Assembly: GCA_023267555.1 (NCBI GenBank)
Contig: JAHFMZ010000003.1
Coordinates: 1 to 48,786, forward strand
Length of the DNA: 48,786 bases
Direction of reading: 5' to 3'
From: a bacterium
GTDB lineage: Bacteria; Patescibacteriota; Minisyncoccia; Phycocordibacterales; UBA5272
The position numbers and the translations under genes are program-made. Below the pieces are notes generated by a model. That model had not been told where the DNA came from. It ran no database searches and saw nothing but the letters and a program-made list of their open reading frames with translations. Every line of letters begins with the position of its first letter. Position 1 is the stretch's first letter. Shown in pieces: positions 1 to 36,575 of this stretch.

Positions 1-2
1 TC

Positions 3-93
3 TTCAAATCCCAACGAATGACACGCAGGTGTCATTCTTCGATTGCGCAAAATTAAAATACCCAAGGCTTTCGCTTTGGGTATTTTAATTTTG
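3..93 (-). mobile_element. 3'-type target-antisense mini-element after tRNA-Asp (cut by window edge)
   Basis: Minus strand: trailer hairpin, then TGCGCAATCGA-[AGAATGACA CCTGCG TGTCATTCGT]-TGGGATTTGAA, a split antisense copy of the tRNA 3' end; same layout as the elements at 27.0, 30.4, 35.0 and 36.5 kb. Confidence 0.65.
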
Positions 94-15335: not shown

Positions 15336-16451
15336 ATGCCTATGTATAAAAAAACAAAGGTTCTACTTGGAACATTGGTGTTAGGATTGGGCATAAGCTT
15401 GATTCCAAATATCGCTCTTGCCACAAATAATGTGACTCTTACGACGAGTACTATTATTCGTGTGGGCGGTCTCAACTTCAATATATCCGGAGCTAGTGCA
15501 GTCATAAATAGTCTTACGGTCAATGCGTCAAGTTTCGCATTGACTTTAGATTCTGGACAGACAGCTCAAATAACTTCATCGGATAGAAAAGTTTTAACTG
15601 ATAATATCAGTGCAACAAATATTTCTCAGGATACTTGTTCTGATTCATCGGAAATATTAGGATTAAAGTCTTCATCAGATGGTACTGTTATTACAGTCAC
15701 TCCATCAAGTGTGACTTGTACAATAATTGGTGGAGGTGGTGGAGGCGGAAGTAGTAGCAGTGGTAGCAGTGGAGGTGGAAGCTCTTATTCAGCACCGGCC
15801 GCTACTCCAGCAACACCGGCAACACCAGCTACTCCAGCGACACAGACTACCCCCGCTGTCCCAGCAACGCCTGCTACTCCAGCAACTCCATCTTTGATGT
15901 CAGCTTCTTTCTCTCGTGACTTAGAACTTGGTGTTACAGGAGACGATGTTATAAATCTTCAGAAATTTTTAAACAGTAAAGGTTACACTGTTTCTAGTTC
16001 TGGGGCTGGTTCGGTTGGTAATGAAACAAGTAAATTTGGTCCAGCTACAAAAAATGCTTTAGCACGATTCCAAAAAGCCAACGGTTTAACTGCGCAAGGG
16101 TATTTTGGAGCAAAGACTAGAGCGTTGATTGCAAGTATGGATAATAACGCAGCCTCATCAGAAACAACAAACTCAATTCTTATAACAACTCCTTCGACCA
16201 ATGTACAAACTTCTTTTGCTCGTAACCTTGATGTGGGTTCGAAAGGGGAAGATGTACGTGCGCTTCAAGAATTCCTTATTGCTCGTAATGTTGGACAAGC
16301 AGCGGCAGCCCTAGCGGCAAATGGACTTACAAATAATATGGGTAAGTTAACAAAAGCAGCGCTCGCAGAATATCAAGCATCGGTAGGTATTAAACCGGCT
16401 TCTGGATATTTTGGTCCACTTACAAGATCTTATATTGAATCAAATAGATAA
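15336..16451 (+). CDS. Secreted protein with two peptidoglycan-binding domains
   Basis: Signal peptide, Gly/Ser and PAT-repeat linker, two copies of R.L..G..G.DV..LQ.FL...G.FG..TR. Confidence 0.88.
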   Translation: MPMYKKTKVLLGTLVLGLGISLIPNIALATNNVTLTTSTIIRVGGLNFNISGASAVINSLTVNASSFALTLDSGQTAQITSSDRKVLTDNISATNISQDTCSDSSEILGLKSSSDGTVITVTPSSVTCTIIGGGGGGGSSSSGSSGGGSSYSAPAATPATPATPATPATQTTPAVPATPATPATPSLMSASFSRDLELGVTGDDVINLQKFLNSKGYTVSSSGAGSVGNETSKFGPATKNALARFQKANGLTAQGYFGAKTRALIASMDNNAASSETTNSILITTPSTNVQTSFARNLDVGSKGEDVRALQEFLIARNVGQAAAALAANGLTNNMGKLTKAALAEYQASVGIKPASGYFGPLTRSYIESNR

Positions 16452-26942: not shown

Positions 26943-27023
26943 GCCGGAGTGGCGGAATGGTAGACGCGCACGACTCAAAATCGTGTATCGCAAGGTGTGT
27001 GGGTTCAACTCCCACCTCCGGCA
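26943..27023 (+). tRNA. tRNA-Leu(CAA)
   Basis: GCCGGAG/CTCCGGC, CTCAAAA loop, long variable arm. Confidence 0.95.
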
Positions 27024-27127
27024 CATATAGAAAAAATACCAACTGCTTGGCTTACGGGGAGTTGAATAGGGGTCGCGAAACTAATTATGACGAACGCAGT
27101 GAGGAATTAGTTTTGTGACCGAGTCTC
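27024..27127 (+). mobile_element. 3'-type target-antisense mini-element, partly decayed
   Basis: CCA-ACTGCT-TGG hairpin, GGGAGTTGAA (antisense to T-arm), TAGGGGTCGCGAAACT...AGTTTTGTGACC, then GAGTC. Confidence 0.65.
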
Positions 27128-30227: not shown

Positions 30228-30292
30228 TTCTGTATTCCTTTTCTGTGAATGAGCCTACGTAAATACTAACTTTATTTATATAAAAGTCAAAC

Positions 30293-30329
30293 ATACAAAA
30301 GAGCGACCCGAAGGGTCGCTCTTTTGTAT
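30293..30329. terminator. Palindromic terminator directly after the displaced topA end
   Basis: ATACAAAAGAGCGACCC-GAA-GGGTCGCTCTTTTGTAT. Confidence 0.8.
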
Positions 30330-30407
30330 TTATTTTTTAACTTCCAATTTATGTGGGTTGTGGTTTGGACAGAGTTTGTCGCTACATCTCTCGGGTATGG
30401 TTTTGGT
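30330..30407 (-). pseudogene. Displaced alternative 3' end of topA (25 codons plus stop)
   Basis: Translates TKTIPERCSDKLCPNHNPHKLEVKK* versus the live end TKTIPERCSDKGCPMHNPHKLNKEEK*. Confidence 0.85.
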
Positions 30408-30623
30408 CACAGATAATTTATCGCCGTCGCTCGAAATTTCCGCGACCCCGGCTCACTTGTTTTTCTTGCTAGAAAAACATAGTTCCGCCAGACAAAGACC
30501 ACCGCAGGCAACGCAGGATGCCTGCTTACCCGAGATATTAATTATTTCTCTTCTTTGTTTAGTTTATGAGGGTTATGCATCGGGCAACCTTTATCTGAAC
30601 ATCTCTCGGGTATGGTCTTTGTC
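30405..30623 (-). mobile_element. 3'-type target-antisense mini-element in the topA 3' end
   Basis: ATCTCGGGTA-[AGCAGGCAT CCTGCG TTGCCTGCGG]-TGGTCTTTGTC antisense to topA 30601-30623; GGGGTCGCGG...CTGTGACC hairpin abuts the displaced end. Confidence 0.75.
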
Positions 30624-32755
30624 CCTTCCATCATCAACTCTCCACATTCTGTCCCGTCATCTTTTTTATAAGTACAACGATTACCAGTTGGGCGAGTTTT
30701 GATTATATGTTTACAATCTGGATAATTTGAACAAGCGTAAAATATTCCAAAGCGTCCTTTGCGCTCCTCCATATATCCGTCTTTACATTTATTACAAGAG
30801 ACACCAGTTGAATTTGCTTTACGCATCTCTTCATCCTGTTCAATATATTTACATTTTGGATAATTCGAACAGGCGATAAATTTACCATATTTTCCTTCAC
30901 GTTCCATTAATTCTCCTTTTTCGCATTTCGGACATTTTTTGCCAAGTAATTTTGGACCTTCCATAACATCACCGTCCATTTTTCTTGCACCCATACATTC
31001 TGGATAACGAATACAAGAATAAAATTTTCCATTTTTTGCAAGCTTGATGACCATCTTGGCGTTACAAAGTGGGCACTTCATTCCTTCTGGAGCATCACCC
31101 ATACTTGTAGCTTTCTCTAAATTTTCTTTTGATTTTACATCTTTAAGAAATGGTCCGTAAAAATCTTTCAATGTTTTTAAATAGGTAGCCTTACCTTCAG
31201 CGATTAAGTCTAGCTTGTCTTCCATATCTGCTGTGAATGTATCACTTATGTATGACGCAAAATGATCTTCCAAAAATGAAATCACAACTTCACCAGTATC
31301 TGTTGGGTGAAGTGCTTTGTTTATTTTTTCAACATAACCGCGCGCTTCGATGGTCGTCATAATAGACGCATAGGTTGATGGACGGCCAATACCTCTTTTC
31401 TCAAGCTCTTTGATTAAACCAGCTTCACTATATCTGTTTGGTGGCTCAGTTTGTTTTTCAATTGATTGTAATGTTTTTAAATTAAGCGTGTCATTTGGTT
31501 TTAGCTCTGGCAAAATTACATCATCACTTTTTGCATCTTCTGATGCCAAAAGCCATCCTGGAGAAAGAAGTATAGAACCTGTCACAGAAAAATCAGGAAT
31601 ACTTTTTGATGGAATATTTGCAGTAACTTTGCTGCGTTTTAATTTTGCATCTTTCATTTGACTGGATACGGCGCGTTCCCAGATGAGTGAATAAAGACGT
31701 TTTTCATCGTCATTTGTACCACCACTTCTTTGCGTAGCGTGAGTTGGACGTATTGCTTCGTGAGCCTCCTGAGCATTTTTTGATTTGGTTTTATATTGGC
31801 GAATTTCTAGATTTTCTTTGCCAAAGTTTTTTTCAATTACAGAAGCAATTTCTGCAACAGCAGTAGCTGACAATGTTGTACTATCTGTACGCATATAAGT
31901 GATGAGACCTTTTTCATATAATTTTTGGGCGATACCCATAGTGCGAGACGGAGAATATCCAAGGCGTGAACTTGCCGCTTGTTGCAAAGTAGAAGTTGTG
32001 AATGGAGCTTTTGGTGAACGAGAAACTTCTGTGCTTTCTATTGAGACGACTTCCCAATTTGAATTTTTACCTTCACGCACAATACGTTCGGCTTCCGCTT
32101 TGTCATTTGGTTGTTTTTCACATTCAAGAATGAGAGTGTAAGTTTTACTTTCTTTCATTCGGCCGACAGTTGAAAATTCGCCAGCAATTACATAATAGGT
32201 GACAGGAATAAATGCACGTATTTCGCGTTCGCGTTCCATAATGATGCGAAGTGCAGGGGATTGCACGCGGCCAGCAGAAAGTCCGTAGCGAACTTTTTTC
32301 CAAATAATTCCTGACAAATCATATCCTACAAGACGATCAAGTACGCGACGAGCCTCCTGAGCTTCTTTTAAATTAATATCAATTTCACGTGGATGTTGTA
32401 TGGCTTCCAAAATAGCTTCTTTGGTGATTTCGTGGAAAGCTACTCGTTTCGCAGTTTTAAGTCCACAAGCTTCTTGTATATGCCAAGCTATCGCTTCTCC
32501 TTCACGGTCGGGGTCGGTTGCGAGTAATATTTCATTTGATTTTTTGGCAAGAGATTTTATTTCAGAAATAACTTTTTCTTTACCAGCACTTACTTCGTAA
32601 TGCGGAATAAAACCACCTTCTATGTCGACAGCTTTTTTATTGCTCTTTGGCAAATCACGAATATGACCAACAGACGCACGCACTTCATATGCGCCGTCTA
32701 AATATTTTGCAATAGTTTTTGCCTTGGAAGGACTTTCTACAATTAATAGTTTCAT
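30542..32755 (-). CDS. topA: DNA topoisomerase I
   Basis: LIVESPSKAKTI, DPDREGE, SAGRVQS, ITYMRTD, C-terminal Zn ribbons. Confidence 0.98.
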   Translation of the reverse strand: MKLLIVESPSKAKTIAKYLDGAYEVRASVGHIRDLPKSNKKAVDIEGGFIPHYEVSAGKEKVISEIKSLAKKSNEILLATDPDREGEAIAWHIQEACGLKTAKRVAFHEITKEAILEAIQHPREIDINLKEAQEARRVLDRLVGYDLSGIIWKKVRYGLSAGRVQSPALRIIMEREREIRAFIPVTYYVIAGEFSTVGRMKESKTYTLILECEKQPNDKAEAERIVREGKNSNWEVVSIESTEVSRSPKAPFTTSTLQQAASSRLGYSPSRTMGIAQKLYEKGLITYMRTDSTTLSATAVAEIASVIEKNFGKENLEIRQYKTKSKNAQEAHEAIRPTHATQRSGGTNDDEKRLYSLIWERAVSSQMKDAKLKRSKVTANIPSKSIPDFSVTGSILLSPGWLLASEDAKSDDVILPELKPNDTLNLKTLQSIEKQTEPPNRYSEAGLIKELEKRGIGRPSTYASIMTTIEARGYVEKINKALHPTDTGEVVISFLEDHFASYISDTFTADMEDKLDLIAEGKATYLKTLKDFYGPFLKDVKSKENLEKATSMGDAPEGMKCPLCNAKMVIKLAKNGKFYSCIRYPECMGARKMDGDVMEGPKLLGKKCPKCEKGELMEREGKYGKFIACSNYPKCKYIEQDEEMRKANSTGVSCNKCKDGYMEERKGRFGIFYACSNYPDCKHIIKTRPTGNRCTYKKDDGTECGELMMEGTKTIPERCSDKGCPMHNPHKLNKEEK

Positions 32756-34944: not shown

Positions 34945-35093
34945 TTTGTGCCCAGGGCGGGACTCGGTCACAAAATCAGCTCCTTCGTCGCAGATGATTT
35001 TCCGACCCGTATTCGAGTCCCGATAAAAGCCAAGCAGTTGGCTTTCTCCCTGTCACAAAATGAAAAAGCTGGCAAAAGCCAGTTTTCATTTTG
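34945..35093 (-). mobile_element. 3'-type target-antisense mini-element after tRNA-Leu(TAA)
   Basis: 22-bp direct repeat 34945-34966 / 35090-35111; split antisense TGTGACAGGG-[AGAAAGCCA ACTGCT TGGCTTTTAT]-CGGGACTCGAA; GGGTCGGAAAATCA...TGATTTTGTGACC. Confidence 0.8.
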
Positions 35094-36422: not shown

Positions 36423-36575
36423 CAACATAAAAAATGAGACCGCGTAAGCTGTCCATTTTTTAGTTGTGCCCGAGAAGCAAGTGATCTGCACCACTTGCGT
36501 AAGGACTTGAATAGGGGTCGCGAAGTCTTCTATTTTTGATTACAAAAATAGACTTTGTGACCAAGTCCTTTCCCG
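36423..36575 (+). mobile_element. 3'-type target-antisense mini-element after tRNA-Leu(TAG)
   Basis: GTTGTGCCCGAGA-[AGCAAGTG ATCTGCAC CACTTGCGT]-AAGGACTTGAA, TAGGGGTCGCGAAGTC...GACTTTGTGACC, direct repeat AAGTCCTTTCCCG. Confidence 0.8.

Follow-up and report, generated by a model that had tools for sequence, protein, structure and literature searches.

A small non-coding integrative element that probably replaced the 3' end of topA in a Patescibacteriota genome, and the tRNA-linked family to which it probably belongs

The T-loop of tRNA genes is a known class of integration site, the bridge RNA of IS110 has a target loop and a donor loop that each read both DNA strands, and in filamentous phages that use Xer, such as the CTX phage, a folded single strand mimics the chromosomal site on which the host recombinase acts, the target being dif, the fixed Xer site. 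Other close comparisons come from published work: the prophage e14 integrates in the 3' end of icd, supplies a new end and leaves a 163-bp pseudo-icd with the gene functional, so that gene-end repair on insertion is already known (PMC6379469); in IS200/IS605 a short guide, placed just 5' of the foot of the hairpin, recognises both cleavage site and target site by base pairing, and altering this guide reprogrammes the target (PMC3201880, PMC5934647); the bridge RNAs of IS110 are described in PMC11208160; and the dual spacers of tigRNA pair with opposite strands, Tas being a Nop-domain protein (10.64898/2026.09.09.750476). Here I will compare with these systems a locus at the end of topA, the topoisomerase I gene, in a 48,786-nt stretch of DNA from a member of the Patescibacteriota (GCA_023267555.1, contig JAHFMZ010000003.1, positions 1 to 48,786; the whole stretch is called the window below). 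I consider it very probable that an integrative element replaced the topA tail, the displaced copy being the resident one; the mechanism that I propose, with single-strand movement, a base-paired choice of target and an enzyme acting in trans, is more tentative and falls a little short of even odds; and the statement as a whole, replacement and mechanism together, I would put at roughly 60%. I take the topA element to be non-autonomous and one of a family, restricted to this lineage, of small integrative elements that are non-coding and site-specific and that probably choose their targets by base pairing.

In the window topA is an intact open reading frame (ORF) of 737 aa on the minus strand (30542-32755, from the ORF list and its translation) that is matched at 59-87% identity in 40 of the 41 related genomes searched, and the C-terminal residues of this live TopA are ...GTKTIPERCSDKGCPMHNPHKLNKEEK followed by the stop. 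The initial annotation, made from the sequence alone, had pointed to a second topA tail just downstream, and its description is accurate to the base: the final ~25 codons recur in frame on the minus strand at 30330-30404 as a displaced copy that reads ...VTKTIPERCSDKLCPNHNPHKLEVKK and a stop (the stretch translated for this comparison was 30330-30419), recovered at E = 2.2e-7 by a six-frame TopA search of the whole genome and paired with the live copy by a repeat finder at 75% identity over 61 nt with a spacing of 215. Eight of 17 aligned codons differ between the two, six synonymously and two non-synonymously, and the same serine is encoded by TCA in one tail and AGC in the other. Between the topA stop and the displaced tail lie ~130 nt of structured non-coding DNA, with a compact non-coding module that starts 8 nt past the stop, on the same strand as topA. 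The unit as a whole, about 215-216 nt without an ORF, occupies 30405-30620 and is inserted after GGGAC within Gly-Thr codons, ~25 codons ahead of the stop; GGGGTCGCG stands at 30441-30449 and GTGACC at 30405-30410, and the terminator directly abuts the displaced stop codon. Read along topA, the parts are the following.

30621-30625, minus strand: left flank GGGAC in topA, inside the Gly-Thr codons, with the junction directly after it.
30542-30620, minus strand: live tail with stop codon, which probably arrived with the element; mostly synonymous relative to the displaced copy, and the partner of the antisense segment.
30527-30536, minus strand: antisense half A, which pairs with the IPER codons of the live tail, also in the minimum-free-energy fold.
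30504-30525, minus strand: hairpin 1, 22 nt between the antisense halves with a conserved CUGC loop; nine covarying pairs, 9/9 changed on both sides among 149 distinct copies.
30491-30501, minus strand: antisense half B, which pairs with GACAAAGACCA across the junction, 11/11 positions against the live copy.
30450-30490, minus strand: middle domain, GGC/GCC closing pairs around an AGCA-loop hairpin, which defines a family subtype; covarying pairs in 10 genomes.
30405-30449, minus strand: terminal hairpin P2 with base GGUCGCG/UGUGACC, its last base being the right end of the element; 13 pairs, 10 changed on both sides.
30330-30404, minus strand: displaced resident topA tail with stop, a gene fragment without a start, contiguous with the terminator.
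30293-30329, both strands: bidirectional intrinsic terminator of the original topA 3' end; 17-bp stem with eight G-C pairs and T runs on both strands.

This layout is real and no assembly artefact. The strain-chimeric assembly against which the initial annotation had warned is contradicted by contigs of two studies that bridge the junctions and by recurrence of the layout in 12 other genomes: a 461-nt public contig from a groundwater run, possibly the same sample as the window assembly, spans 30265-30725 with 0 differences, and contigs from a landfill run of another study cover 30268-30413 with 0 differences and 30384-30623 with three. A second short match to residues ~709-735 just downstream was found in 14 of the 40 topA-bearing genomes. 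When the topA 3' regions of 30 loci were compared, 13 had the element between a live and a displaced tail (11 from the genus itself, the other two from different families within the order), two had a different hairpin insert of ~40 nt with a displaced tail, whole or partial, 14 had a single tail and one ran into a contig edge. In the two exceptional loci (L003 in G011 and L006 in G008) the ~40-nt insert after the topA stop is one short hairpin whose junctions are unlike those of the main element, and the displaced tail beyond it is complete in G011 and partial in G008. The element is patchy among close relatives, with TopA identities of 87% with, 87% without, 85% with and 84% without it, and G010 has two elements and three tails in tandem behind topA; patchiness and tandem array together argue for repeated gain and probably also for loss. 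In 12 of 13 genomes the displaced copy resumes directly past GTGACC at the third base of a Thr codon, and the Gly-Thr codons are GGGAC in 11 of 13 element-bearing and three of 14 element-free loci, a comparison of related genomes that carries no statistical test.

Which of the two tails is foreign was approached through 15 live/displaced pairs from 14 genomes, compared over 17 codons (51 nt). Twelve of the pairs are 63-86% identical and nearly all of their differing codons are synonymous, with synonymous/non-synonymous counts of 14/0, 12/0, 11/1, 11/1, 11/2, 11/2, 10/2, 9/3, 6/2, 5/2, 5/2 and 4/3. Divergence that is almost synonymous only, down to the TCA/AGC serine, argues that both tails served as real TopA ends in separate lineages and that one copy came from another lineage, and the initial claim that this is not a recent local duplication holds for the window and for these 12 pairs, although not for the remaining three, which are 98-100% identical. 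The displaced copy had also been taken for the ancestral end, and several observations agree. Its ending LEVKK, stop codon and terminator start resemble the single tails (LEIKK, LEPKK) of the closest element-free relatives; five live tails end in ...SKK or ...LKK, their displaced partners ending like native tails; residues that are otherwise invariant are replaced in four of the 15 displaced copies (E>G with P>S; N>S; P>S with H>Y; P>L) and one displaced copy is frameshifted near its end, against 0 replacements at invariant residues in live tails within the genus; and in a relative, low-depth contigs pass directly from 30371 to 30591, so that 215 nt net are missing and one tail is left, the 3' part of which lies on the displaced copy. 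Terminator contiguity, the ending, the broken invariant residues and these 215-nt-shorter contigs support the displaced copy as the resident topA end. Aligning the 3' regions of relatives, as had been suggested, gave the 13 element-bearing loci described above, and placing the tails phylogenetically, the other half of that suggestion, did not succeed: the tails are too short for a tree and their nearest neighbours over 51 nt mix live, displaced and native ones in no stable grouping, the live tail here being closest to the displaced tail of G021 (84% identity). Such mixed neighbours would fit tails passing between species.

In all of this the locus is reminiscent of e14 and phage 21 in Escherichia coli icd, where a new protein-gene 3' end is likewise supplied and the displaced end kept at the other junction. 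Those are prophages of tens of kb with their own integrase, whereas here the vehicle is ~216 nt long, non-coding and structured, and carries an antisense copy of the target.

This antisense copy is split into two halves, which cover adjacent stretches of one strand, so that target, guide and hairpin 1 would form a three-way junction. In the window all 20 scored positions pair with the live copy, and 18 of the 20 with the displaced copy; over 10 genomes the figures are 193 of 200 for the live tail and 153 of 200 for the displaced tail even in its best register. The guide also changes with its target: in G018 the live tail has AAA instead of AAG and the guide UUU instead of CUU, and where the tail reads ATT CCA GAA instead of ATA CCC GAG half A changes to match. 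Half B extends 3-4 nt across the junction into the left flank, and its flank-pairing end (GUUC in tRNAs, GAC in topA) is separated from the foot of P2 by 2-4 nt or else by the middle hairpin. The match of the split antisense segment at 30491-30536 to the live tail, one of the initial observations, is therefore borne out by the counts over 10 genomes and by the compensatory changes, and an antisense matched to the live tail, next to tail pairs that differ mainly synonymously, upholds the further proposal that the element brought in a foreign topA tail. Similarly, the minimum-free-energy fold of the 223-nt sense strand is the same structure, the tail paired with the split guide, at -80.6 kcal/mol; shuffled sequences come to -53.6 +/- 4.6, and none of 200 equals the real fold (z = -5.8). 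Among tRNA-linked copies half B has a complementary run of at least 10 nt with its own tRNA in 83 of 94 and half A one of at least 8 nt in 42 of 94, where controls with other tRNAs gave 159 and 31 of 837. Across 149 distinct copies 96.7% of cells are paired, compared with 75.3% in shuffles and 33-45% with slid partners, and 19 of 22 pairs show changes on both sides, in an alignment that was fitted to the model; in independent MAFFT alignments compensation is seen at 12 of 22 and at 22 of 38 pairs. The conserved G.U wobbles at the foot of the P2 stem, which exist as such in the sense strand only, are kept in 143 and 115 of the 149 copies, and the variable stems have 38 G.U and 25 A.C among 2901 cells, G.U being no commoner.

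Furthermore, the topA element is not alone. Family members consist of a guide half, a hairpin, a second guide half and a long hairpin with the conserved base GGUCGCG/UGUGACC, and a covariance model, R1, built from eight tRNA-linked copies finds 23 of them in the 514-kb genome to which the window belongs (G000), to which a pattern search adds two variants for a total of 25. Twenty-four of the 41 tRNA and tmRNA genes of G000 carry a member behind them and the 25th copy is the one in topA, which the tRNA-trained model matches at 24.8 bits and which has the P2 base and hairpin 1 in common with the tRNA copies. Four of the tRNA-linked members lie in the window.

27021-27120, plus strand: member behind tRNA-Leu(CAA), R1 84.9 bits.
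36464-36562, plus strand: member behind tRNA-Leu(UAG), with a displaced T-arm fragment after it, R1 97.6 bits.
34966-35058, minus strand: member behind tRNA-Leu(UAA), R1 64.6 bits.
1-50, minus strand: member behind tRNA-Asp, cut by the window edge so that its 3' end is missing; R1 model positions 1-50, 37.7 bits.

Rfam 15 at the gathering score finds eight tRNAs and nothing else in the whole window, and a permissive scan of 30280-30660 gives terminator-like chance matches only. The subtype with the topA-type middle domain stands behind a tRNA or tmRNA in 10 of 10 further copies from other genomes. That the system can target protein genes, as first supposed, is true of topA and of nothing else so far found: topA is the only protein-coding target (one of 25 copies in G000), and among 111 listed low-GC copies elsewhere no protein target was recognised, 22 of these being without a co-oriented upstream tRNA and eight of the 22 having been examined. 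Many of the 22 lie at locus edges and the eight show tRNA-like 3' ends. Among the matches listed, 83 of the 111 low-GC copies have a co-oriented tRNA ending 30-321 nt upstream, and at least 29 anticodons are targeted. The displaced tRNA fragment begins exactly after GGTTC or AGTTC in 45 of 45 locatable cases (those, among 94 tRNA-linked copies, in which the first 8 nt of the displaced fragment were found in the live tRNA), which places the junction right after C56 of the T-loop. Tandem copies also occur behind tRNAs. The element thus shares with tRNA/tmRNA 3'-half islands and prophages a T-loop integration, a regenerated 3' end and a displaced fragment at the far junction, and differs from them in having no adjacent integrase and no ORF, in its tens of copies per 0.5-Mb genome and in its at least 29 anticodons with matching antisense.

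The exact P2 pattern is present in 33 of the 41 relatives, including all 25 genomes of the genus (reversed-pattern control, 0), and a scan of species representatives gave at least 115 loci. The low-GC loci listed are all labelled as Patescibacteria (Paceibacterota, Parcubacteria, Nomurabacteria, Gracilibacteria and 'Saccharibacteria') and none of 150 other genomes of the phylum, an even sample, had a match at E <= 1e-5 under strict filters with 26 candidates scored per genome, which together indicate that the family is lineage-restricted. Two pattern scans of viral contigs gave, among the matches listed, eight and two candidates, none with the element layout, a result that does not imply absence. 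In old copies (e.g., C1:2120) guide, P2 end and displaced fragment decay together, which speaks for a selfish element rather than a host RNA, and in some copies cargo lies between tRNA and module (methyltransferase, YecM, GNAT/ASCH proteins, S51 peptidase, truncated Rep), so that the module can bound larger islands. One copy (L401, in G029:C5) lies behind an apparent tmRNA, just downstream of the end of a smpB-like ORF, which would make tmRNA a target as well. In four public contigs (L291, L296, L323 and L390) the live partner upstream is not called a tRNA by ARAGORN and the displaced fragment is a normal-looking tRNA 3' end; several of them have GGTTCTAAC... upstream and may be odd or interrupted tRNA genes.

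As for how such a unit could work, it carries, from left to right, a replacement for the 3' end of the target with its stop codon; then the antisense of the first ~20 nt of that replacement and of 3-4 nt of left flank, split by the conserved hairpin; then an optional middle hairpin; and then the terminal hairpin, the last base of which is the right junction. Insertion takes place in one orientation and at one fixed point relative to the guide, and regenerates the target. With the resident tail and its terminator left downstream as a dead fragment topA stays intact, and since the target is whole again after every insertion, new copies can settle upstream of those already there. I propose that the element would move as a single strand, with a slight preference for DNA over RNA: the lack of a G.U excess over A.C in variable stems and the terminator-like hairpin ahead of the guide in tRNA copies are weak pointers to DNA, and the P2-base wobbles restricted to the sense strand and the position of the topA module within a transcript region point to RNA instead. 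In the tRNA copies examined here that terminator-like hairpin is part of the tail-guide helix, between tRNA and guide. The antisense segment would pair with the target strand and present the cut site beside the P2 foot; as the guide end pairs with the left flank beside the P2 foot and the P2 end (GACC) is paired in its stem, the two exchange sites would come to lie side by side, and an enzyme in trans would carry out the strand exchange, acting on GGGAC (topA) or GGTTC (tRNAs) in the target and on GTGACC where the element ends.

Much of this recalls IS200/IS605 (IS608) and its miniature derivatives, with a strand-specific imperfect hairpin near an end, a fixed orientation 3' of a short flank motif and, here as a deduction from sequence, a flank that pairs with a guide 5' of the hairpin foot. 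Unlike those, the element pairs over ~20 nt and not four, carries a copy of the target 3' end, has a hairpin at the right end only (P2), its left end being the target copy, and resides in a genome without a Y1 transposase: the Y1 HUH family PF01797 has 0 matches in G000, and a RAYT-like protein of a relative used as query is also unmatched there. With the IS110/IS1111 bridge (seek) RNA it shares a structured non-coding module with a guide split around a stem that specifies the insertion site, and differs in lacking a DEDD recombinase and a donor loop, in having both halves on one strand and in a donor that carries a target copy. TIGR-Tas is different again, since both element halves read one strand and G000 has no Nop-domain protein (PF01798, 0 matches at E <= 0.1). 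A manner of movement like that of CTX-type phages would fit a genome whose sole recombinase is Xer-like, G000 having a single Xer-like tyrosine recombinase beside rpsO, on another contig than the topA window; these phages target the fixed dif, whereas here the mimicked site differs per target. The element lacks defining features of IS200/IS605, of IS110, of integrase islands and of TIGR-Tas. What appears to be undescribed is the combination of a tiny structured vehicle, a target-matched split antisense, dozens of copies per genome and no recognisable enzyme, and full-text literature searches, confined to the articles themselves, found no description of such an element.

Several findings sit awkwardly with the reading of topA-tail replacement by a mobile unit. 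The displaced copy here is without one junction base that is present in the 12 other genomes, which leaves the exact cut uncertain by 1 nt. The association of GGGAC with the element could stem from a preference for such targets, from the guide restricting the codon choice or from a crossover that lies further left. The three near-identical tail pairs (G018, G023 and G036) also fit a tail copied from the target; they may come from a near-identical donor, from homogenised copies or from such copying. Seven G000 copies have an identical 45-nt P2 and different hairpin 1 stems and guides, so that simple copying and moving of whole units is insufficient and either exchange between copies or a new guide made from the new target is needed. 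G000, at 93% completeness, has no match to the IS110 DEDD, serine recombinase, TnpB, Y1 HUH, rve, DDE_Tnp_1 or Nop domains, and the public contigs yielded no excised circle and no empty site of the same strain.

These points give room to other explanations. The module could be transcribed by read-through from topA or the tRNA and the RNA could direct a recombinase to the target DNA, as bridge RNA does in IS110. Such RNA-guided recombination would account for G.U wobbles that are conserved at the P2 base in the sense strand, for a topA module inside the 3' untranslated region ahead of the sole terminator and for a guide-hairpin-guide order that recalls an internal-loop guide. I nevertheless judge it unlikely, given that G000 has no IS110-type gene (PF01548, 0 matches, where the control search matched six of 14 reference genomes), that both halves are contiguous and antisense to the same strand with no separate donor loop, that the tRNA copies examined in G000 have a terminator-like hairpin ahead of the guide, and that the variable stems show no G.U enrichment.

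Improbable to the same degree is protein-only integration by a tyrosine or large serine integrase acting in trans, with the units as cis-mobilisable or deleted remnants of islands and the antisense merely structural. At least 29 tRNA tails and topA exceed what one protein could read, the stems covary, which is not required of a double-stranded binding site, the guides track their targets, and the units are uniform and compact, unlike random deletion remnants. Regeneration of the 3' ends of tRNA, tmRNA and protein genes is, however, the classic signature of an integrase, and some copies enclose cargo genes. In G015 the space between tRNA-Gln and module is taken up by a 6.7-kb island with genes for a G2P-type Rep, a large serine recombinase, a GmrSD/HNH nuclease, an EcoRI-like methylase and an FtsK-gamma protein. 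Islands with a G2P-type rolling-circle Rep and a large serine recombinase occur in four of the 41 genomes, and as a motor they were rejected for want of a firm link, three of the four being without a module at the far end; G000 moreover has no serine recombinase. In the islands L411 (G001), L413 (G015) and L414 (G008) the recombinase ORF and a tRNA gene (Ile, Gln and Leu, respectively) run towards each other on opposite strands, and the end of the ORF reaches into the 3' end of the tRNA gene.

A third explanation, which I find still harder to credit, has the tail duplicated from the target at insertion, by a long target duplication or fold-back synthesis, and made foreign later by homologous recombination with the allele of an element-bearing species. 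It would cover the three near-identical tail pairs, the duplications that extend 15-20 nt beyond the tRNA end in some tRNA copies and the live tails that are often like displaced and native tails of other species (as in G000 and G021, above), and the conserved parts of the element could act as the right-hand homology arm; against it, duplications of anything between about 17 and 80 nt would be required, a separate explanation would be needed for hairpin 1 and for the antisense copy, and the older element of the G010 tandem array keeps its own tail. Lastly, that the element does not move and is a conserved structure acting in cis at the 3' end of topA and tRNA transcripts, the second tail being left over from a single event long ago, is very improbable despite the stable fold and the members behind 24 of 41 tRNA/tmRNA genes in G000, because the element is patchy behind topA among close relatives and occurs in tandem, the displaced tails are open and synonymously different, unlike a single old relic, old copies decay and the model matched 0 of the 150 other genomes sampled from the phylum.

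Other candidates were tried and dropped. RNA splicing of the element is not supported in this window, where joining GGGAC to the displaced copy gives a one-base frameshift, and the mutagenesis typical of diversity-generating retroelements does not apply since the differences between the two tails are not restricted to adenines. A retron-like reverse transcriptase of 382 aa lies in G000 on contig C6:12434-13579 (L032), between RNase R and SMC, and was rejected as the motor because it occurs in one of 41 genomes searched and is shared by no relative; an inverted repeat encloses the ~390 nt ahead of it, which are non-coding and richer in GC. Of the 41 relatives, 22 have RAYT-like or IS200-like Y1 genes, and a RAYT-like HUH/Y1 protein of 220-250 aa with HWHLVL and YQGRYKSF motifs is common in the order (e.g., L418, G038). 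Such genes invite a comparison with REP elements, hairpin repeats in high copy number that accompany or flank a RAYT gene. Four Y1 loci checked with the element model gave no significant match (best E = 0.013), the RAYT-like locus L418 has no element copy by the model, and in 16 order-level genomes RAYT and element are both present in five, RAYT alone in five, the element alone in three and neither in three. Neither the Y1/RAYT-like genes nor the Rep/serine-recombinase islands track the element. Clustering of neighbour genes (682 ORFs from 98 loci) gave housekeeping neighbours and two unknown clusters without a recombinase domain.

Returning to the replacement of gene ends by an element that moves, a non-coding unit of ~200 nt occupies more than half of the tRNA loci in a 0.5-Mb genome and has reached an essential protein gene. 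As the antisense covaries with each target, the base-pairing rule for site choice is directly testable. If that rule is true, nature would offer here a compact means of inserting DNA at gene ends in a programmable way and without a scar, and a route by which the C-termini of essential proteins are exchanged between species of Patescibacteria; it also explains many of the stray tRNA 3' and gene-end fragments that annotation pipelines meet in these genomes. More speculatively, and doubtful as I hold it to be, the ~100-nt module might be the targeting part of an undescribed, naturally reprogrammable integration system that pairs over ~20 nt, mends the gene end with a copy brought along and has been retargeted to one essential protein gene, tmRNA and tRNAs of at least 29 anticodons; its enzyme might be a host protein (e.g., a Xer-like recombinase) or an unrecognised or RAYT-like HUH nuclease.

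The window holds two further repeats that stand apart from the element. On the minus strand at 93-800, three tRNA genes (one tRNA-Asp, two tRNA-Met) each have ahead of them a displaced duplicate of their 5' portion together with the promoter-like sequence upstream of it. A short hairpin, similar or antisense to the anticodon arm, comes after the duplicate, and the same arrangement is found before tRNA-Thr elsewhere in G000 (contig C12:18250-18400). These copies may point to another kind of element, a mirror image of the first, by which tRNA genes would have their 5' half renewed. At 15784-15895 a 9-nt unit is repeated nine times in tandem with 60-75% identity, and is probably a coding repeat.

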